A stretch of 64,000 bases of DNA from the NCBI GenBank assembly GCA_035281125.1, contig DATEEM010000085.1, positions 39,671-103,670 of the forward strand, in the 5' to 3' direction. Positions 12,410 to 20,767 of the stretch are shown one piece after another (positions within the stretch are counted from its first letter, which is position 1; the number at the start of each line of letters is the position of its first letter). This stretch comes from Sphingomicrobium sp. (GTDB taxonomy: Bacteria; Pseudomonadota; Alphaproteobacteria; Sphingomonadales; Sphingomonadaceae). The translations under genes were made by a program, and so were the position numbers. The notes beneath the pieces were generated by a model that was not told the origin of the DNA, ran no database searches, and worked only from the letters and a program-made list of their open reading frames with translations.

Positions 12410-13134
12410 GGCTGCTCCGGCGCGCGCGGCGGGTTCTTGAGAATGCCTGTGGGGTCAACCATCGCCCCGTCTTCCAGGCGGATCATGTGAGCCCCGGGGG
12501 TTGCGTTGATCAGCCCTATGTCGTGCGTGGCGACGAGGACGGTCGTGCCTAGGCGGTTCAGCGCTGTGAATAGGTGGAGCAAACGACTGGCCATTTCGGC
12601 ATCCACGTTGCCGGTCGGCTCGTCCGCGACCAGCAGCTCGGGCCGGTTGATCACCGCCCGCGCGATCGCGACGCGCTGCTGCTCGCCTCCGGACAGCGTC
12701 GCCGGCCTTGCGCTCGCCCGATCGGCGAGTCCGACCCAGGCGAGCATTTCCCGCACCGAGCCTTCGATCTCCTCGTCACGGGCGCCGGCGATCCGCAGCG
12801 GCAGCGCGACATTGTCGAACGCCGACAAATGGCGGATTAACCGGAAATCCTGGAACACGACGCCGATCCGCCGGCGAAAAGCCGGGAGCGCCTCGCGCGA
12901 GGCGTCGGTCAGCTCCTGCCCAAACAATGAAACGCGGCCGCGCGTCGGGCGCTGCGCGAGGTAGAGGAGCTTGAGGAGCGACGTCTTCCCCGCGCCCGAG
13001 GGCCCCGTCAGGAAGTAAAAGCTGCCTTCGGTGAGACGAAAGTCGAGGTCGCGCAACACCTCGGCGCCGGTCCCGTAGCGCAAGCCGACAGAATCGAATT
13101 CGGCGACCGGAGTCAAAACGCGGACCCTCCCCAT
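12406..13134 (-). CDS. ftsE: Cell division ATP-binding protein FtsE
   Basis: [41 protein letters not shown]. Confidence 0.95.
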
Positions 13135-13211
13135 TGCGCCCTGCCTTGCCAAGGGGCGCACATTCCTGTTTACCCTCCGCACACCGTCCCGGAAGAGGGC
13201 TTTTTGCTGAA

Positions 13212-14129
13212 ATGATCCTCACCTGCCCCAATTGCGCAACGCAATATGTGGTCAAGGATGGGGCAATTCCGCCGCAAGGCCGCCAGGTTCGCTGCGCGGC
13301 CTGCAAGCACAGTTGGCACCAGGACCCGGAATCGGCAGCCGAGCCGGAGCCGGCGGGCAACGACGCATCCGTGACCGCCGCCGGAGAGCCCGACGAGACG
13401 TTCGCAGAGGCGGCGATGATCGAGCCGAGCACAGGTCCCGAAGCCGAGGAGCGGGCCTTCGAGGGAGCCGTAGTCGCCGAGGCCGGGTCGGAGGCGAGTG
13501 CCGAAGCCGAGCCGGAGATGACTGCCGAAGCCGAGCCGGAGACGACCGCAGACGCCGATGCGGAGCCCGGCGCGGACCGCGGCCAGTTCGACATCCTCCC
13601 GCATCCGGGCGAGCGGGCCCCGGACTTCGCGGCGCCGCCCGTGCCGGAAGCCCAGCCCGACGACGACTTCAGCCCGTTCGCCGAGCGGGACTATGTCGAG
13701 ACGCGGCGGCGGCGCCCGCTGCGGGCAATTCTCGTCGTGCTGCTACTCGTCGCCGTCCTCGCGGTCGCATTCTGGTTCTTTGCCCCGCCGCAATGGAAGG
13801 CCCGGCTCGGCCTTGCCGGCACGGCTGCGACGCCGCTTCAGCTATCGAACCCGCCGCACATGGAGCTGCGGCCGCTGGCCAGCGGAAACCAGTTGCTGAC
13901 CGTGGCGGGACGGATCATCAACCCGACCGGGGACACCCAGCCGGTCCCGCCGATCTACGCGCAGCTTCGCGATCGCGGCGGCAAGGTCGTCTACAGCTGG
14001 ACGATCCCGCCGCCGGCGCCGACCATCGGGCCCGGGGAGAGCAAAGCGTTCAACAGCGCCGAGGTCAACGTTCCCACCGGCGCCGAAAACCTCATGCTGG
14101 AGATCAGCATCGGCTCGCCGAGAGCCTGA
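13212..14129 (+). CDS. zitP: MJ0042-type zinc-ribbon membrane protein, probable ZitP ortholog
   Basis: MILTCPNC...VRCAACKHSW zinc finger, acidic linker, one TM, C-terminal DUF3426-like domain; divergent from ftsE. Confidence 0.7.
   Translation: MILTCPNCATQYVVKDGAIPPQGRQVRCAACKHSWHQDPESAAEPEPAGNDASVTAAGEPDETFAEAAMIEPSTGPEAEERAFEGAVVAEAGSEASAEAEPEMTAEAEPETTADADAEPGADRGQFDILPHPGERAPDFAAPPVPEAQPDDDFSPFAERDYVETRRRRPLRAILVVLLLVAVLAVAFWFFAPPQWKARLGLAGTAATPLQLSNPPHMELRPLASGNQLLTVAGRIINPTGDTQPVPPIYAQLRDRGGKVVYSWTIPPPAPTIGPGESKAFNSAEVNVPTGAENLMLEISIGSPRA
13500..13547 (+). repeat. 24-bp in-frame tandem duplication (AEAEPEMT/AEAEPETT) in the zinc-ribbon protein linker
   Basis: gccgaagccgagccggagatgact followed by gccgaagccgagccggagacgacc; degenerate third copy to about 13568. 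Confidence 0.85.
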
Positions 14130-14351
14130 TCATTCGAATTCGATCAGGCGCGCCCGCCTCGTTTCCCCACCCGTCTGGATCACGGAATCCCGCGTGATGT
14201 AGCCATCGCGGCTTTCCGCGCTGCCGAGGCGCAAGACCGCGCCGGAGATGACCCGGACCGTCGCGCGCGCCTGGACGCGCGACGCGACCGGCTCGCGCGC
14301 CGGTTCCGGAGGGGCCGACACGGCGGCAGCGACGGCAAGAAGAAGCAGCAT
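14130..14351 (-). CDS. Small (73 aa) secreted hypothetical protein
   Basis: MLLLLAVAAAVSA signal-like N-terminus; fills the gap between zitP and tRNA-Leu; stop abuts the zitP stop; no clear SD sequence. Confidence 0.65.
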   Translation of the reverse strand: MLLLLAVAAAVSAPPEPAREPVASRVQARATVRVISGAVLRLGSAESRDGYITRDSVIQTGGETRRARLIEFE

Positions 14352-14383
14352 GCCGCGGACGTAACGCGAGCGGCAGCAAGTGG

Positions 14384-14398
14384 TAAACAATGTCTTAA
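14384..14398 (-). promoter_or_regulatory. CtrA-like site upstream of the 73-aa gene
   Basis: Gene strand TTAA-GACATTG-TTTA followed by CCA; 33 bp from the ATG. Confidence 0.55.
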
Positions 14399-14442
14399 GA
14401 TTCGTCCCGCTATGGCACGCGAGTCCGGGCGTTTGGCCTCCA

Positions 14443-14518: not shown

Positions 14519-14605
14519 GCGGTCGTGGCGGAACTGGTAGACGCGCAGCGTTGAGGTCGCTGTGGCCGAAAGGCCGTGGAAGTTCGAGTCTTCTCGACCG
14601 CACCA
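14519..14605 (+). tRNA. tRNA-Leu (anticodon GAG)
   Basis: GCGGTCG acceptor stem, TGGTAGA D-loop, TTGAGGT anticodon loop, long variable arm, GTTCGAGT T-loop, encoded CCA. Confidence 0.97.
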
Positions 14606-14659: not shown

Positions 14660-15229
14660 TTGATCGAAATCGAGGCGGATATCGTGCTCGGTGAGGCGTT
14701 CCGCCCGGCCGCCATCGCGCACAGCCACGTCTACAGGGGCGGCGTCCGGCGGATTCTCCTGCCGGCGCTCGCGCTCGCCGGGGCAATCATCTTGTCGTCC
14801 ATGGTCGGCATGCTCCTGCCGCTGCTCAGCCTGCGCCTCGAAGGCCTCGCCAGCCTGTTGTGGATCGGCGGCGGCATCCTCGGGCTGATGCTGGCGCTGA
14901 GGATCCTGTCCAGCGAGCACATGCGCGGCTTTCTCGACGGCTTGCGGCGGATCGGTTCGCCCGACGTCTTCCCGACCCGGTTCCGCTTCGACGAGCAGGG
15001 AATGTCGATCGCCAGCAGCCGGATCAGCTACTTGGTCCCATGGGCCTCGATCTTGTTCATCGTGCCATCCCCGGAACATTGGCTCGTCCAGGTCGACACG
15101 ATGACTCTGGTGATCCCTTATCGGGCATTCCCGGACCCGCAATCGGAGCGCGCGTTCCTTGACCTGGTCGGTGCGCGGCTGCTCCCGGACGCGAAGCGCC
15201 GTTCCGTCCTCGACAGAAAGGCCGCCTAG
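14660..15229 (+). CDS. YcxB-family membrane protein
   Basis: Two TM helices, then the YcxB-like FDEQG...VPWASI...VIPYRAF domain; TTG start with GGAGGGG RBS. Confidence 0.7.
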   Translation: MIEIEADIVLGEAFRPAAIAHSHVYRGGVRRILLPALALAGAIILSSMVGMLLPLLSLRLEGLASLLWIGGGILGLMLALRILSSEHMRGFLDGLRRIGSPDVFPTRFRFDEQGMSIASSRISYLVPWASILFIVPSPEHWLVQVDTMTLVIPYRAFPDPQSERAFLDLVGARLLPDAKRRSVLDRKAA

Positions 15230-17922
15230 GGCATCGTTAGCGGCAGGTCGCCCGATGCGATCGCGTGGGCGGTCGAGACATGGACTGCGCCGAGCCTGAC
15301 GACCGGTCGCTCCGGTGTGACTGTCGCGTTGAGGTTGAGCTCTGGCAGAATGCGCGCGGCCGCCGCCGAATCCCGTGCGATTCGCAACGAATAGCTGCCG
15401 TAGGGCACCCGTTCGAACAGGAAGAAGCCGTCGAAGTCGGTGCGCACAGTCGCGACCAGCTTGCCGGCCCCGTCGACGAGCTCGACGTCGAGGCCCTCGA
15501 ACCCGATTCCGCCGCTCTTGACGAGGGCGCCTTCGATGTCGCCGCCACCGACCAGCCCGATTTCGACCTCGGCCGGCACGCCGGGCCGCGGAACCACGAC
15601 CTGCAAGGCCTTTTTCGGGACGAGCATCGGGTCGCCGAGGCTAGTCGCATCGATCCCGACGGTCAGCGGCGTGTAGGCCGTGAGACCGCCGATCGTGACC
15701 GACCCCTTGGAATCCGTCGCGCGCTCGGCCTGCTTGGTTCCGGTGGTGATCAGCGCGCCCCTTTCGAGCGGCTCCGAGGGGTCGTGGAAGCCGTTGTCGT
15801 TGAGATCGCGATAGACGAGCGCGCGAATCATGCCGGCTTCCGCGAGGGGGCGTCGCGACAGGGTCATGCCGCGCCTTGGATCGAGCGAGAAATTGAGGTT
15901 CACGCCGAATGCGACGGAGCCGTCGGTCGCGGCTTCGCCAGTCAAGGCAATCGCCATCGAATCCAGGCGGCGGATATGGCTGATCCGGAAGCGGCCGCGA
16001 TGACCGGCCCCGTCATAGGCGACCGCGCCTTCCCAGTCGGCATTTTCCGATGCCGACCAATAAGCCGACAGCTCGGCGTCGCGGAAACGCGCGCGCGGCG
16101 CGACGTCGAAGCTGGCCAGGCCGCGCAGGCGCACGTCGCCGACGTGGCCGCTGCCGATCATCGCGACATTGACCTCGCCCGGCGGCGCCGGCCCCGAGCT
16201 CAGCAATTGCTTGCGATAGGCGACGTCGGTGGCGAGATTGAAGCGGCCGAGGTTTGCCGACAGTCTCGCAGCCGCCTCGAGCTGCTTCGACCCGTCCCCG
16301 CGGTCGGTGAAATGGACCTCCGCGTGCGCCGGAACGACCTTTCGCCCGATTTTCAGTGGCGCGTCGACCGTGGCGCGAAACTCGCGGAGGCTTTCGGCGC
16401 GGCCTCCCTGCAAATGAAAATCGCTTGCAATAATCGCTTCGGCGCCGACGTTCACGCGCCCGAACTTGCCGACCATCTGCGCCCTCGCCGCCATCCCGCC
16501 GGTCGAATCGCGCGCGGCCGACACTTCAACCAGCGCGCCGCCGATCGACCGCCGTACCGAGCCCTCGACAAACGTCACACGCTCGTCGTCGATCAGCATC
16601 ACGCGAGCCAGCGCGCCAACCGACGTGCGGGTATCGATGCCATGCTCGATGGAGACCGCCGCCTGGGCCTTCGGCTGCCCAAAGCGGTCGGGCGGTTTTT
16701 GCAGCGTGAGCACATCGCGGCCGGGCTGGTTGAAGCCGGCCCAGTACCAGGTCTTGCCCGCCGGCACGTTGTCCTGCCCGACGTTGATCACTTCCTCGCG
16801 CGAGCGGATTTGTCCCTGGGGGCCGTAAAGGACGATGCTGACGCGGTTTTCGCCGTAGAAAAGTTGCACGTCGTCAAATACATAGCGGCTACTCGCATTG
16901 GCCTTGGCGAAGCCGAGCAGCTCGCCGTTGCGATAGATTTCCGCTTCCCAGCCGCTTGGAAGGTCACCTTCGAAGCGAGTCCGGTCAAACGACGCCTGGG
17001 TAGTCAGCGGCCGATTGGTCACGACTGCCCCGCGGCCGCTGGCCGCCGACCCGCTGAGCCGGCTGTCGAAACCCTCAACGTCGCCGAAGCCGAAGTGGGT
17101 GGCCTTGAGCGGTCCGAGCAGCTGCGCTTCGGGATCCGAACGGTAGGCGCGGAAGCGAAGCATGCTCGGCATGCCCTTCTCGGTCGTCGTCAATTGCGCA
17201 TCGTAGGACAGCTTGGCGATCTCCCCGGCCGCATAAACCGAGCTTTGCCGATCGATTCGAACGCCTTGCCCGGACCGGTACGTGACTCCGGCGCTGACGA
17301 CGAAGTCGAGGGCCGGCGCGCGCCACATGCGGTACGGGAGCTTCACCTGGGGGAGCGTGGCCAGATCGTAGCGCGCGGTGCGGATGTGCTGCGACCTTTG
17401 CTGCCGCTCCATAGCCATTTCGACCGGGAGCTTCGCCTCGGATTCGAGGACCAGGACCGAGCCGGACGTCACGGGCTTGACCCCTATGCCGAACCAGCGG
17501 GCAAGGGCGGTCGTCTCGACGCACCAGCCCTCTGGTGTCTCCCGGATCGTGCCCGGAGCGAGAGTCTCGTTCTTGGCGCCGTAGCTCGCCGAGTTGGCAG
17601 CGTAATCGATTGAAATCCGGTTCTTTTCCTTGAACGCCCAACCGCCGGCCTTGCGCGCCGTCAGGTCGACCTTCACGGGTACGTCAAGCGCAGTCAGAAA
17701 GTCGCCTAAGACGACACAAGTCCCTTCGGGGGTGGTGTAGGCGCGGACGCCATCGCCGAGCCTCAGCTGCCGAATGTGGACGTCCAGCAGGAACTGCGCG
17801 TCCGGATCGGGGCTCCAGCCCTTTGCGGCCGCAGGCGGCGGAGGCGCGGATGCGGCGACGCTGCCGGCGCAAAGCGCCAGCAGCATCCCCGCCCTGCGCA
17901 GCCAATGACGGCCGGCGCGCAT
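15226..17922 (-). CDS. Outer-membrane usher-like protein of a chaperone-usher fimbrial system (898 aa)
   Basis: Signal peptide; PapC-N-like domain; usher plug-like motif (GWEAEIYRNGELL...DVQLFYGENRVSIVLYGPQG); amphipathic beta-strand barrel region; two C-terminal Ig-like (SdrD-B/carboxypeptidase-regulatory-like) domains. Confidence 0.8.
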   Translation of the reverse strand: MRAGRHWLRRAGMLLALCAGSVAASAPPPPAAAKGWSPDPDAQFLLDVHIRQLRLGDGVRAYTTPEGTCVVLGDFLTALDVPVKVDLTARKAGGWAFKEKNRISIDYAANSASYGAKNETLAPGTIRETPEGWCVETTALARWFGIGVKPVTSGSVLVLESEAKLPVEMAMERQQRSQHIRTARYDLATLPQVKLPYRMWRAPALDFVVSAGVTYRSGQGVRIDRQSSVYAAGEIAKLSYDAQLTTTEKGMPSMLRFRAYRSDPEAQLLGPLKATHFGFGDVEGFDSRLSGSAASGRGAVVTNRPLTTQASFDRTRFEGDLPSGWEAEIYRNGELLGFAKANASSRYVFDDVQLFYGENRVSIVLYGPQGQIRSREEVINVGQDNVPAGKTWYWAGFNQPGRDVLTLQKPPDRFGQPKAQAAVSIEHGIDTRTSVGALARVMLIDDERVTFVEGSVRRSIGGALVEVSAARDSTGGMAARAQMVGKFGRVNVGAEAIIASDFHLQGGRAESLREFRATVDAPLKIGRKVVPAHAEVHFTDRGDGSKQLEAAARLSANLGRFNLATDVAYRKQLLSSGPAPPGEVNVAMIGSGHVGDVRLRGLASFDVAPRARFRDAELSAYWSASENADWEGAVAYDGAGHRGRFRISHIRRLDSMAIALTGEAATDGSVAFGVNLNFSLDPRRGMTLSRRPLAEAGMIRALVYRDLNDNGFHDPSEPLERGALITTGTKQAERATDSKGSVTIGGLTAYTPLTVGIDATSLGDPMLVPKKALQVVVPRPGVPAEVEIGLVGGGDIEGALVKSGGIGFEGLDVELVDGAGKLVATVRTDFDGFFLFERVPYGSYSLRIARDSAAAARILPELNLNATVTPERPVVRLGAVHVSTAHAIASGDLPLTMP

Positions 17923-17956
17923 CGAGTCTGCGCTCCCCGCGCTTCCCGCGCCCCTC

Positions 17957-18790
17957 CTAGTAGAGAACCGCCTTGGTTTCGGCGATGACGTGGCTGCCGT
18001 CGTCGAAGGTCTCGACATATTGGACGGTCACGGGCCCGCGCAGCTCCTCCTTGAAGCTCTCCTCCACCGGGACCGCGACGTGGCGCGTGCTGACCTCCTT
18101 GTAGACCGCGACGGCCTTCTGGACGGCGATCGGGTTGCGAACGCCCGGCTTCAGCACGCGCACCTCGCCAAAGGTAGAGCGATCGCCGGAGCGCGAGATA
18201 TCCAGCCCGACGTAGGACTTCCCGTTCTTCTGCTCGAGCTGAACATTGGCAATCCCGGCGGTCGCCTGGAGGTTCCCGAGCCGAACGATGACCGGGATGG
18301 TGACGCCGTAGACCGGCGTTAGCTGGAAATGGAGGCCCTTGGGCGCGTCGCCCGCCGCGGCGGGCTGAACGACGGGGTTGGCCGGGGGAATGGCGCGGAA
18401 CAACAGGTGCACGCGATATTCGCCGTCGGGCATGCCTTGGGGCGGGCGCGCGGCAATGCGGATCGCCTGCGGCTGGTGCGGCGCCAGCACGACCTTGCGC
18501 GGCGCGTAGACGATCATGTCGGCCGCCTTCTGGTCTTCCGTGGTGGGCTCGTTGACGTCGATGAGCCCGCCCTCGCTCGTCATGCGGCGGAATTCGATCG
18601 ACACCCGGTAGGTCGCCGGCTCCTCGCCGATATTGTTGAGGATGACCTCGGCGCCCCTGCGGCCATCGAGCACGATGCGCGTCGGCGCGACGAGCAGGTC
18701 GCCGATGCCCGCCTCGGCAGGCGTGGCGGCGAGAAGCAATGGCGCAGTGCACAGGCATGCGCGGAAGGCGGACTGGGTCCAGCGGTTCAT
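17957..18790 (-). CDS. Periplasmic fimbrial chaperone (PapD-N-like)
   Basis: Signal peptide; LLVAPTRIVL...VILNN...APRKVVLAPHQPQAIRI...GEYRVHLLFRAIP...VTIPVIVR; GAGGGG RBS. Confidence 0.82.
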   Translation of the reverse strand: MNRWTQSAFRACLCTAPLLLAATPAEAGIGDLLVAPTRIVLDGRRGAEVILNNIGEEPATYRVSIEFRRMTSEGGLIDVNEPTTEDQKAADMIVYAPRKVVLAPHQPQAIRIAARPPQGMPDGEYRVHLLFRAIPPANPVVQPAAAGDAPKGLHFQLTPVYGVTIPVIVRLGNLQATAGIANVQLEQKNGKSYVGLDISRSGDRSTFGEVRVLKPGVRNPIAVQKAVAVYKEVSTRHVAVPVEESFKEELRGPVTVQYVETFDDGSHVIAETKAVLY

Positions 18791-18848
18791 GACGGCGATC
18801 CCCTCACTTGCTCCACACTGGAGCGATCGCCGTCCTCTTTCGTCGGGA

Positions 18849-18871
18849 ATGGTTGATTTTCGGTCAACCAT
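18849..18871. promoter_or_regulatory. Palindromic CtrA-like site upstream of the chaperone-usher genes
   Basis: ATGG-TTGA-N7-TCAA-CCAT, perfect 8-bp inverted repeat with a 7-nt spacer. Confidence 0.6.
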
Positions 18872-18920: not shown

Positions 18921-19439
18921 TCAATAGTCCACGGTCACGTTGAACGTGCCGACATAGACTCCTCCCGCGGTGCTCGAACTCAGCGTGATCGAGCCTCCGA
19001 GGGAAAAATTCACTCCCGGATTGCCGGAGTTGGGGATGAAAACCGTTCCGGGGTTGTCGACGACCAGCGTCAGTGTCTTGCTCGGGTCGTTCTGGTTGAC
19101 CAGGGTCACGTTCGGGGCGGAGATCCGCGCCGTCTGGTTGTTGGAACCGGCCACGTTGTAGGTCGCGACCTGGGTCGTCCCGGAGCAGGTGACATTGCTG
19201 TTCGCGCAGCTGAACAGGCCGGTCCGGGTAATGCCAACGGTCGCGTTCGACCAGGTCCCCGGGCCGAGGACGATCGTCCCGAGGTCGAGGTTCTGCACCC
19301 ACTTGAGCGTCAGCGGCTTCACGACCTTGGCCGACACGGCGGCGCTCTTGTTGGCCGCATGCGCGGGCGCCGCGGCAAGGGCGGCCGCGAGGACGATCGA
19401 AATTGCGGCAAGGCCCGATCGGGCTCGCTGGCGCACCAC
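18921..19439 (-). CDS. DUF4402-type fimbrial subunit (paralog 2)
   Basis: Signal peptide, AAVSAKVVKPLTL, Cys pair, C-terminal GVYVGTFNVTVDY; GTG start with GGGAG RBS. Confidence 0.85.
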   Translation of the reverse strand: MVRQRARSGLAAISIVLAAALAAAPAHAANKSAAVSAKVVKPLTLKWVQNLDLGTIVLGPGTWSNATVGITRTGLFSCANSNVTCSGTTQVATYNVAGSNNQTARISAPNVTLVNQNDPSKTLTLVVDNPGTVFIPNSGNPGVNFSLGGSITLSSSTAGGVYVGTFNVTVDY

Positions 19440-19485: not shown

Positions 19486-19508
19486 ATGGTTTATTTTGTC
19501 TCAACCAT
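19486..19508. promoter_or_regulatory. CtrA-like site upstream of subunit 2
   Basis: ATGG-TTTA-TTTTGTC-TCAA-CCAT, near copy of the 18849 site. Confidence 0.6.
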
Positions 19509-19585: not shown

Positions 19586-20104
19586 TTAGTAATTCACGGT
19601 GACGTTGAACGTTCCGACGTAGGTGCCATCGGCGGTCGTCGAAGCGACGGAGATCTGGCCGCCGAGATCGAAGGTCAGCCCGACAGCGCCGGAATTGCCG
19701 AGGTTGACTGTGCCCGGGCTGTCGACCGTCATGAGCAAAGTCGAAACGCCATCGTTCTGATTGGTCAGGGTCACGTTCGGCGCGTTGATGGTTACGACCT
19801 GATTGTTGGTCCCGGTGATGCGGTACTGGGCCGTCTGGGTAGCGCCCGAGCAGGTCGTGTTGGCGTTGGCACAGCTGAACACGCCGGCCCGGCTGATCCC
19901 GACGTTCGCGCCCGACCAGGCGCCCGCGCCGGACAGGACGATCGTCCCGAGGTCGAGGTCACGGACCCAGGTCAGGGTCAGCGGCTTTACGATCCGCGCT
20001 GTGGCCGTGGCATTCTGGTTGGGACCGACCGCAAACGCGGGCGTTGCGCTCAGCGCCCATGCCGCAACCGCCGCCAGCGACATCATGCGAAGGACATTGC
20101 TCAT
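19586..20104 (-). CDS. DUF4402-type fimbrial subunit (paralog 1, probable major subunit)
   Basis: Signal peptide ending PAFA, ATATARIVKPLTL, Cys pair, C-terminal GTYVGTFNVTVNY; followed by its own terminator. Confidence 0.85.
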   Translation of the reverse strand: MSNVLRMMSLAAVAAWALSATPAFAVGPNQNATATARIVKPLTLTWVRDLDLGTIVLSGAGAWSGANVGISRAGVFSCANANTTCSGATQTAQYRITGTNNQVVTINAPNVTLTNQNDGVSTLLMTVDSPGTVNLGNSGAVGLTFDLGGQISVASTTADGTYVGTFNVTVNY

Positions 20105-20206
20105 CGTTTATTTCCCCACTTGGATTGGAAATCACTGCCGGCTGGCCAGATGGTCACCCGCGGGTTTACCAATTAACCTTAATCGCTTTCGGCTTTGCTC
20201 AGGGGC

Positions 20207-20225
20207 ATGGTTAACGGCCGGTTAG
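20207..20225 (-). promoter_or_regulatory. CtrA-like site upstream of subunit 1
   Basis: Gene strand CTAA-CCGGCCG-TTAACCAT; extra TTAA half-sites at 20173-20182. Confidence 0.6.
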
Positions 20226-20248
20226 GCCTTCGGCCGGCCTGGCCGAGG

Positions 20249-20767
20249 TCACAGATATTCAGCCGTGATCGGCAGATCGCCGCGATATTCGCCGTCCGCA
20301 TCGCCGCTGACGCGGAGCCGTCCGCCGAAGCGAAAGGTGAGATTGCCCGCGGAATCGAGACGCGGCATGGACGGGAGGTCGCTGGCGACGTCGTCGAAGA
20401 CCACCTGGCCGCCGCTCAGCGAGTGGAGCACGATACTGTTCGGCAGCACGACCCGGATCGCTCGCCCCGGCTCGCCGCGGACGACCACGGTGCCAACCAT
20501 GGCCCGCGGGCTGATCTCCGCGATCGCCCCGCTGATCGCGCGCGATCCGTCGGGCCGAATCATGGCGGTGCCATCGCCCAAACCGGACAGGATGAGTCGG
20601 TCGAAGCTCAGGCCGGTTTCGATTTCGAGGCGGACGTCGTTCTTGCCGGAATTGTCGTCGCGGCTGGTCGTGGGCGTCGCGCAAAGGCGGCACTGGGCGG
20701 TCGCCGAGACCGACGAAGCCAGGCCGACACCCGCCATCAGCATCACAAGCGCGCTTTTGAGGCTCAT
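20249..20767 (-). CDS. Divergent DUF4402-type subunit (possible tip/minor subunit)
   Basis: Signal peptide, CRLC N-terminus, LSFDRLIL, FRFGGRL, C-terminal GEYRGDLPITAEYL. Confidence 0.75.
   Translation of the reverse strand: MSLKSALVMLMAGVGLASSVSATAQCRLCATPTTSRDDNSGKNDVRLEIETGLSFDRLILSGLGDGTAMIRPDGSRAISGAIAEISPRAMVGTVVVRGEPGRAIRVVLPNSIVLHSLSGGQVVFDDVASDLPSMPRLDSAGNLTFRFGGRLRVSGDADGEYRGDLPITAEYL

Follow-up and report, generated by a model that had tools for sequence, protein, structure and literature searches.

A family of small, signal-peptide-bearing-like proteins coupled to a DUF4402 chaperone-usher cluster in Sphingomonadaceae: a possible mini-pilin

During chaperone-usher assembly, every new subunit places its N-terminal extension in the groove of the subunit that reached the usher before it, with the chaperone gripping the subunits by their C-terminal strand and carboxylate. 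How these fibres stop growing is understood for a few classical pili only, through PapH and FimI, the chain-terminating subunits of the P and type 1 pili of the classical chaperone-usher pathway. It is not understood for the archaic and DUF4402-type branches. The locus described here raises this question for a DUF4402-type system. It lies in a stretch of Sphingomicrobium DNA of 64,000 nucleotides (the window), in which a very small open reading frame is found close to a cluster of DUF4402 pilin genes. A first-pass annotation had read this frame as a secreted microprotein with a strand of the type that pilins donate to one another, which could complete, anchor or terminate the fibre. Is this a gene, is it tied to the fibre, and what could so short a protein do there?

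The small gene, its neighbours and its family

The frame of 73 codons is present as described, with its ATG start. The genes around it, in window order, are:

preceding the Zn-ribbon/DUF3426 gene, minus strand: ftsX/ftsE
13134-14129, plus strand: Zn-ribbon/DUF3426 gene
14130-14351, minus strand: microprotein coding sequence, 73 amino acids, ATG start, stop codon at 14130-14132; sequence MLLLLAVAAAVSAPPEPAREPVASRVQARATVRVISGAVLRLGSAESRDGYITRDSVIQTGGETRRARLIEFE
14519-14605, plus strand: tRNA-Leu(GAG), always flanking the microprotein gene and kept in genomes without the microprotein and without the cluster
14660-15229, plus strand: YcxB gene
15226-18018, minus strand: usher-like outer-membrane protein of 930 amino acids, part of the partner chaperone-usher system
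17957-18871, minus strand: PapD-like periplasmic chaperone, with a weak PF00345 match (E = 8e-4, below the Pfam cut-off) but conserved beside the usher
18921-19439, minus strand: DUF4402 pilin (PF14352, E = 1.7e-15) with the N-terminal extension AAVSAKVVKP
19586-20104, minus strand: DUF4402 pilin (PF14352, E = 2.6e-17) with the N-terminal extension ATATARIVKP
20249-20767, minus strand: third DUF4402 protein (PF14352, E = 1.4e-19), whose N-terminus is without the alternating extension
past the three DUF4402 genes, plus strand: PBP1A

The slot of the microprotein is fixed, with the Zn-ribbon/DUF3426 gene on one side and tRNA-Leu(GAG) on the other. The subunits that had been called its neighbours are indeed near, but the gene stands outside the fimbrial cluster, from which tRNA-Leu(GAG) and the opposite-strand YcxB gene separate it. 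The pilin encoded at 19586-20104 is modelled by AF2 as a 12-strand sandwich (pLDDT 88) and its top Foldseek matches are all chaperone-usher pilins (Caf1, CfaB, CsuA/B). Because of these matches, it is a reasonable premise that the neighbouring genes encode donor-strand-exchanging subunits.

A six-frame search with the single sequence recovered intact orthologues in 20 of 60 other genomes, all but one of them from the same genus, and tRNA-Leu(GAG) adjoins 18 of the 19 orthologue loci that were fetched. A profile HMM search found intact frames of about 70-110 amino acids in 101 of 121 Sphingomicrobium genomes, a sample that takes in isolates deposited as Sphingomonas hankyongi and S. edaphi, and further divergent copies were recognised by inspection of the loci. 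Harmless soil bacteria in culture are among the carriers; the non-pathogenic S. hankyongi SE220 and S. edaphi DAC4 are examples. Conservation of the frame, on which the earlier reading had been made to depend, is borne out. The frame is intact in more than 150 of the genomes examined, from more than 10 genera, and a crude pN/pS of 0.27, calculated on codons that differ at a single position, indicates purifying selection. Overall identity is only 25-50%, yet across 80 distinct sequences F72 does not vary at all and P14, A28, R33, G62 and E71 hardly do.

When 1.84 billion representative proteins were searched exhaustively with the profile, the microprotein fell into a family of 653 representative clusters, 346 of them at E <= 1e-10. 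Most members have 68-80 amino acids, the longest among the 150 matches listed having 167, and the profile match always extends to the final residue. The source records annotate the members as 'hypothetical protein'. Pfam gave no match for the window protein or for any of 66 family members (E <= 0.05), NCBIfam gave none for any member, and a genus-specific DUF4402 HMM found none among the microprotein frames. A word-indexed protein search with the single sequence recovered only the sequence itself, because the family diverges too fast for shared 5-mers. The microprotein therefore belongs to an unannotated, stand-alone family of small proteins, sizeable enough to comprise hundreds of sequence clusters.

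The frame at 14130-14351 is almost certainly a real gene. A decaying pilin remnant, or a chance frame in the promoter region of the tRNA, would be in line with the short length, the lack of a Shine-Dalgarno sequence and of a database family, and the single frameshifted copy (genome G133). However, the usher and pilin genes of that same assembly are likewise broken, and the frame is otherwise open over the whole range of genera, with its invariant Phe, its nearly invariant Glu, Gly, Arg and Pro, the low pN/pS and a conserved promoter. A non-functional origin is for these reasons very improbable.

Coupling to one orthologous chaperone-usher cluster

The usher was found in 108 of the 121 Sphingomicrobium genomes and occurs together with the microprotein in 101. 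The 20 genomes without a microprotein match include all 13 that have no usher, and no genome has the microprotein alone. Seven genomes were left with the usher only. In the five of these with contiguous loci a divergent copy had in each case escaped the profile; the copies end in LIEFE, YEFE, YDFE or LLEFQ, and one of them is frameshifted. Nine usher-less genomes have the gene order ftsE, Zn-ribbon, tRNA-Leu, PBP1A. The gap between the Zn-ribbon gene and the tRNA measures about 90-165 bp in these genomes, versus about 390-475 bp in the carriers, so that tRNA-Leu has been retained where the microprotein on its far side has not. The PBP1A tree requires at least three independent changes.

Within the genus, this coupling alone is no proof of a functional link, because homologous recombination that replaces the whole segment could remove both elements. 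Allelic replacement of the segment from the Zn-ribbon gene to PBP1A could explain the cases within the genus, but not those in other genera. A single genomic island at the tRNA was also considered as the cause of the joint absence and is ruled out: the frame lies 5' of the tRNA, the tRNA is retained, and the coupling holds where the two loci are unlinked.

Other genera of the Sphingomonadaceae (by deposited names) provide such unlinked loci. In them, too, the Zn-ribbon gene and tRNA-Leu enclose a clear homologue, and no chaperone-usher genes lie within 9 kb of it except in one genome (G275). Nevertheless, an orthologous usher of full length (E <= 1e-211), adjoined by DUF4402 genes, is encoded in 16 of 16 such genomes, at a distance of 46 kb to more than 300 kb from the microprotein or on another contig. 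The order-level sample, an even set of 301 genomes each at least 90% complete, has the orthologous usher (E <= 1e-144) in 66 genomes, and all 30 credible microprotein matches fall within these 66.

Inspection of the slot in 35 more genomes included 15 that are usher-negative (genera g24, g25, g26, g27 and g37), all of them without the microprotein. In 14 the slot is a gap of 91-163 bp and in the remaining one it holds a MATE-like gene. Several of the 15 carry paralogous DUF4402 ushers and still no microprotein. Ten usher-positive genomes that the profile had missed do carry it. On the other hand, in six usher-positive genomes (genera g29, g32, g36 and g65) the slot holds no microprotein, nor did the order-level search with the profile detect one at another place in those genera; the microprotein is therefore dispensable for the fibre system. 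On a tree of 68 genomes, which is the gene tree of the single adjacent Zn-ribbon gene, seven independent and well-supported pairs differ in the usher. The microprotein changes in the same way in six to seven of them and in the opposite way in none (sign test, p = 0.016-0.031). These contrasts, taken with the six genomes, indicate that the microprotein depends on this fibre system, and that the system does not strictly need the microprotein.

The presence of the microprotein is thus evolutionarily coupled to one orthologous DUF4402 chaperone-usher cluster, as the reading in the first-pass annotation required: among about 190 genomes checked there is no frame without the orthologous usher. The case is a clean example of how a phylogenetic profile can assign a small gene to a machine hundreds of kb away. 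Some genomes carry extra paralogues of the microprotein, far from any DUF4402 gene. Paralogues were looked for beside other DUF4402 clusters and none was found there, which speaks mildly against a strict coupling, and the other DUF4402 loci of the window's genome have no such partner.

Part of this pattern would also be expected of an unrelated small envelope protein from the same regulon, with another surface or cell-cycle function, which follows the usher through a shared lifestyle module. In most genera the gene is fixed beside the Zn-ribbon/DUF3426 gene, ftsEX and tRNA-Leu and not beside the cluster, its paralogues are not near pilin genes, and six usher-positive genomes do without it. Against such a protein stand the lack of a single discordant contrast, the complete absence of the frame from those of the about 190 genomes that are without the orthologous usher, and the failure of paralogous DUF4402 ushers to rescue its presence. 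That the microprotein works with this DUF4402 fibre system is accordingly considered likely.

Pilin-like ends and a shared promoter box

The 80 distinct sequences follow one plan: a hydrophobic leader, a Pro, a variable Pro-rich linker, the segment QAxATVRIxSGxRL, a variable loop, a (D)G turn, and xPAxL[IV]EF[QE] directly before the stop. In the window protein the parts of this plan are:

14313-14351, minus strand: N-terminal hydrophobic, signal-peptide-like segment MLLLLAVAAAVSA, then the nearly invariant Pro14 (alignments)
14226-14282, minus strand: donor-strand-like segment and following strand, SRVQARATVRVISGAVLRL, residues 24-42 (family consensus QAxATVRIxSGxRL)
14139-14198, minus strand: C-terminal beta-hairpin, residues 52-71 (ITRDSVIQT-GG-ETRRARLIE), with the conserved (D)G turn (AF2)
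14133-14147, minus strand: terminal motif LIEFE (family pattern L-[IV]-E-F-[QE]; F in 100% and E in 99% of 80 sequences)

The leader conserves an h-region of 10-14 residues and an A-S-A motif, but as a signal peptide it is atypical: no homologue has Lys or Arg in the n-region, and a Pro follows A-x-A in more than 90%. Export of the microprotein is therefore a tentative prediction and its cleavage site is uncertain; cleavage may occur earlier than A-x-A, or at the conserved VQA that precedes the donor-like strand. The AF2 model, based on an alignment of 66 sequences, has a short helix at residues 7-11 and a hairpin with strands at residues 52-60 and 63-71 (pLDDT 87-91). The donor-like segment is extended and unpaired (pLDDT about 70-81). 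In a model, an unpaired extended segment is what would be expected of a strand that needs a partner, yet it is not evidence of one. The chain had been judged too short for a full Ig fold, and so it is: the mature part has about 50 amino acids and the model yields one hairpin and the extended segment. A Foldseek comparison of the model with the PDB gave trivial hairpin matches only and no fold match.

Residues 26-35, VQARATVRVI, had been likened to the extensions that the two pilins carry just past their signal peptides, ATATARIV (19586-20104) and AAVSAKVV (18921-19439). This likeness holds up in a comparison of profiles. The sole profile-profile alignment obtained with hhalign pairs SRVQARATVRVISGAVLRL of the microprotein with PNQNATATARIVKPLTLTW of the pilin, which is the pilin N-terminal extension plus the first strand. 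Positions 4-22 of the profile of the mature microprotein are matched to positions 3-21 of the mature pilin profile, N-terminus to N-terminus (P = 0.004 for the N-terminal half). Both aligned segments lie three residues in from the edge of the region compared and thus correspond in their distance from the signal peptide. The score of 16.1 is reached by none of 250 composition-preserving column shuffles (7.8 +/- 1.6, maximum 14.1), so the resemblance of the donor-strand-like segment is statistically real, with the qualification that HH-suite, by its own calibration, gives the match at the N-terminus a probability of no more than 3-8%. BLASTP of the microprotein against the pilin gave no alignment.

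At the other end of the chain, the family ending L[IV]EF[QE] parallels the pilin ending [VA][DE]Y[QL]. The last 5-6 residues fit best at the C-terminus of the pilin itself, which ranks first of 143 ungapped registers of the DUF4402 profile (z about 3.5); the rank falls to 3 for 8 residues and to 11 of 136 for 12 residues. A correspondence of the whole C-terminal hairpin to the pilin C-terminus was considered as well and is not supported by the profile alignment, in which only these last 5-6 residues match. Both termini of the microprotein therefore resemble pilin termini. Of the characters of PF14352 pilins, it has the alternating small hydrophobic N-terminal extension after the signal peptide and the C-terminal strand that ends hydrophobic-acidic-aromatic-x. 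It has neither the match to the family HMM nor the incomplete Ig-like body of about 120-150 residues with an acceptor groove.

The promoter of the microprotein and the corresponding sites of the pilin genes comprise the following elements:

14361-14367, minus strand: -10-like box, conserved GCGTTAC, 9 nt before the ATG (GCGTTA(C/G) stands 7-12 nt before the start in most orthologues)
14380-14398, minus strand: CtrA-like box TTAA-GACATTG-TTTACCAC (that is, TTAAGACATTGTTTACCAC; TTAAGACATTGTTTACC at 14382-14398), overlapping the -35 position of the microprotein promoter
14404-14418, plus strand: imperfect inverted repeat of the type GTCCC-N5-GGGAC, just upstream of the CtrA-like box, in most of 80 upstream regions
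19487-19504, minus strand: box TTGAGACAAAATAAACCAT upstream of the 18921-19439 pilin gene, TTGA-GACAAAA-TAAACCA (12.5 bits with the microprotein-derived matrix)
20205-20228: box CCTAACCGGCCGTTAACCATG upstream of the 19586-20104 pilin gene (18.8 bits with the same matrix)

There is no Shine-Dalgarno sequence upstream of the ATG. Many orthologues read GCGTTAG, the TAG of which immediately precedes the ATG as a stop codon in the same frame, and this fixes the ATG at 14351 as the start. An alternative TTG start at 14390 is ruled out, for it would lie within or upstream of the conserved promoter boxes and beyond that stop. In view of the missing Shine-Dalgarno sequence, the microprotein mRNA is probably leaderless or nearly so.

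The upstream regions of the orthologues conserve the box as TTAA-N7-TTTACCAT, with the consensus tgcTTAAcacgcTGTTTACCAT; the second half of the box is TTAACC or GTAACC in more distant genomes. In the 64 kb window the microprotein site is the only match to TTAA-N7-TTWACC, with 0 expected. The consensus of Caulobacter CtrA is TTAA-N7-TTAAC, with the 8-mer TTAACCAT, and the microprotein box, one mismatch away, is a putative site of the CtrA regulon. A CtrA-type box is tentatively preferred to a reading as an ECF-sigma promoter, TTTAC-N16-CGTT, because it accounts better for the TTAA-N7 half-site and for the TTAACCAT-like 8-mer.

The resemblance of this box to the site of a neighbouring subunit was confirmed, the latter being the one at 19487-19504. 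The distribution of the box was followed with a weight matrix built from the microprotein promoters of other genomes only and scanned over 1.0 Mb from 80 related loci. Of 134 same-strand matches at 14 bits or more, 55 are training sites, 65 lie within 160 nt upstream of DUF4402 genes and 14 are elsewhere; 65 of the 79 non-training matches thus precede DUF4402 genes, about 30-fold over expectation. Applied to the genome that contains the window, the matrix gives 21 sites with 14 bits or more and 39 with 12 bits or more. The microprotein site ranks second in the whole genome (27.1 bits); other sites precede two of the cluster's pilin genes and a DUF4402 gene located on a different contig. The name 'fimbrial promoter motif' given to the box in the first-pass annotation is consequently right in that pilin genes have it in common but too narrow for a CtrA-like motif with about 20-40 sites in the genome. 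As judged from these sites, it is a global-regulator motif shared with pilin genes and not specific to fimbriae. Shared regulation is for this reason suggestive only.

The wide use of the box and the low HH-suite probability could also be counted in favour of the unrelated envelope protein, whose likeness to pilins would then reflect a generic beta-strand composition. Such a composition does not explain the matches, because the shuffles preserve it, and both termini independently pick the matching termini of the pilin. Together with the evidence of co-occurrence, this leaves an unrelated protein rather improbable.

A possible cap for the fibre and its relation to known systems

The microprotein is probably a small accessory of the DUF4402 fibre, for which the part of a chain cap is the most likely. 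In the proposed mechanism, it would be a small exported 'mini-pilin' that has retained, or imitates, nothing of a DUF4402 fimbrial subunit but its two ends. One of them would be the N-terminal extension with the first strand, as donated by pilins to the neighbouring subunit, and the other the hydrophobic-acidic-aromatic C-terminal end, as sits in the chaperone cleft in chaperone-usher systems. A beta-hairpin of 20 residues would replace the Ig-like body. Expressed from its own promoter with a CtrA-like box, as the pilin genes are, it would be dedicated to one orthologous DUF4402 chaperone-usher fibre, as an accessory that the fibre can do without. Thanks to its pilin-like N-terminus and C-terminal end, the chaperone would hold it, and its donor-like strand would then enter the open groove of the last assembled subunit. 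A protein with a donor strand and no groove can only be the last unit added. With no groove of its own for a further strand, it would cap the base of the fibre and end its growth.

A natural, encoded donor-strand-only subunit of this kind, a mini-pilin of about 50 residues that the chaperone-usher machinery handles like a pilin and that terminates or caps the fibre, is given a probability of roughly one in three. The statement that the microprotein is a cap or terminator of the fibre is held tentatively, at somewhat under even odds.

The same coupling and the same mimicry would be expected if the microprotein were a periplasmic assembly modulator and not a component of the fibre. It would then bind the chaperone through its pilin-like C-terminus, or cap free chaperone-subunit complexes, and limit or time polymerisation without ever being exported through the usher. 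A regulator could well be dispensable, as the microprotein is in six usher-positive genomes. It would also be in keeping with a regulator that the gene has a promoter apart from the pilin operon and probably a leaderless mRNA, and that paralogues occur away from the cluster. However, incorporation requires precisely such a donor-like strand at the very start of the mature chain, the present data are equally compatible with a cap, and we know of no soluble inhibitor of this kind in chaperone-usher systems. A modulator is regarded as the less likely role, though one to be taken seriously.

If the microprotein is a cap, a protein of about 50 residues with only two functional pilin ends would represent the minimum needed to enter the pathway and close the fibre. 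It would also offer a natural model for peptide-type pilus inhibitors. Its class of component would be new to chaperone-usher systems, and in most genera its gene would lie far from the operon, with the shared CtrA-type promoter box as the only link between the two.

Several known systems can be set beside the microprotein. Its promoter is like the CtrA-box promoters of Caulobacter in that the box, TTAA-N7-TTTACCA(T/C), likewise overlaps the -35 position, although one position of the box differs from the consensus. To our knowledge, the GCGTTA(C/G) box and the upstream inverted repeat have no counterpart.

By sequence, the nearest to the microprotein are the DUF4402 (PF14352) pilins. With these, and with archaic pilins such as CsuA/B, it has the hydrophobic leader in common. 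Its pattern AxATxR[IV][IV]x[GP]xxL sits where the extension and the A strand of the DUF4402 pilins sit, and it shares with them the hydrophobic-acidic-aromatic-Q/E end and the CtrA-like promoter box. The microprotein is without the whole central part of these pilins, a stretch of about 110 residues that includes strands B to E and the Cys pair; the pilin tyrosine is replaced by phenylalanine, and the PF14352 HMM does not match. DUF4402 was not mentioned in the full-text literature that was searched.

The PDB entry 2co2, found among the Foldseek matches of the DUF4402 pilin model, is a solved complex of the SafA pilin with an isolated Nte peptide of 19 residues in its groove. Such a strand fills and stabilises the groove of a pilin without a pilin body of its own, and provides a proof of principle for a donor-strand-only molecule. 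The SafA-Nte peptides are synthetic laboratory molecules, whereas the microprotein is genetically encoded. We know of no natural, genetically encoded donor-strand-only component in any chaperone-usher system.

The closest functional parallel is offered by PapH and FimI; the latter is represented among the same Foldseek matches by 6swh, a FimC-FimI-FimA complex. The role proposed for the microprotein would be alike: a last unit that donates its N-terminal strand to the preceding subunit and accepts none, so that growth stops. PapH and FimI are encoded with their systems and made in smaller amounts than the major pilin; the likeness is claimed for the proposed role of the microprotein, which, unlike them, is encoded outside the operon, in many cases at a distance of hundreds of kb. 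Both PapH and FimI have the size of a full pilin and the whole Ig-like body, in which the groove is merely unreactive. The microprotein has about 50 mature residues, no Ig body and no Pfam pilin match, with a hairpin in their place. The full pilin fold with an exchange-incapable groove that marks the PapH/FimI type is absent from it, and any similarity would be functional only. By this comparison, terminators are already known as full pilins, in PapH and FimI, and what would be new here is a chaperone-usher accessory or terminator reduced to a mini-pilin.

Inverted repeat and CtrA-like boxes

The promoter of the microprotein gene carries, besides its CtrA-like box (a TTAA-N7 motif), an imperfect GTCCC-N5-GGGAC-type inverted repeat, placed 4-6 nt upstream of the box, on its tRNA-Leu side:
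14404-14418, plus strand: inverted repeat; it is conserved at this position across about 70 orthologous loci
No repeat of this type was seen before the pilin genes. The repeat may be the site of a second regulator.

The window's own genome (G000) contains two DUF4402 genes outside the window:
C38:7392-7775, minus strand: DUF4402 gene
C57:3984-4382, plus strand: DUF4402 gene
Neither is accompanied by a microprotein homologue. The gene on contig C38 is preceded by a strong CtrA-like box (C38:7953-7976), which scores 20.7 bits with the matrix built from the microprotein promoters of other genomes. The remaining top scorers genome-wide for the TTAA-N7-TT(T/A)ACCAT box, with 24-28 bits, are the following sites outside the window:
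C23:45160-45183, plus strand: box site
C62:1011-1034, plus strand: box site
C19:16917-16940, minus strand: box site
The genes downstream of these three sites would outline the putative CtrA regulon of this flagellum-poor soil sphingomonad.

Additional paralogues and a frameshifted locus

Some Sphingomicrobium genomes contain one or two additional microprotein paralogues on other contigs, as at the following loci:
L024:8052-8255, plus strand: microprotein paralogue
L162:8983-9186, minus strand: microprotein paralogue
L163:8968-9192, minus strand: microprotein paralogue
Further paralogues occur at other loci among L022-L032. The sequence of one reads ...AWATVRVVRS...VLVRLFEYQ, and no DUF4402, usher or tRNA-Leu gene lies within about 8 kb of these extra copies. 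Locus L045 (G133:C3:113000-124500) comes from a long-read MAG and has frameshifts in the genes for the microprotein, the usher and one of the pilins; indel errors of the assembly are a more likely cause than decay of the whole system.

Both sides of the tRNA-Leu gene

The 3' side of the tRNA-Leu gene is a variable spot. In the window, one gene is placed between the tRNA-Leu and the usher:
14660-15229, plus strand: YcxB-family gene (PF14317)
The close relative G009 lacks this gene and its tRNA-Leu is directly followed by the usher, while in genomes G070 and G024 an unrelated insert of 3.7 kb takes the place of the fimbrial cluster.

The microprotein slot is on the other side, where the tRNA-Leu faces the Zn-ribbon gene. 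In two other genera (L178 of G146 and L198 of G195) a MATE-like membrane-protein gene (about 470 aa) occupies it in place of the microprotein. At L190 (G377) and L196 (G378), which belong to genera g29 and g65, the tRNA-Leu has the orthologous usher as its immediate neighbour, as in Sphingomicrobium, but the microprotein slot is empty, with gaps of 146 and 84 bp. These two loci are natural cases of a cluster without the microprotein and are of use for the comparison of fibre properties.
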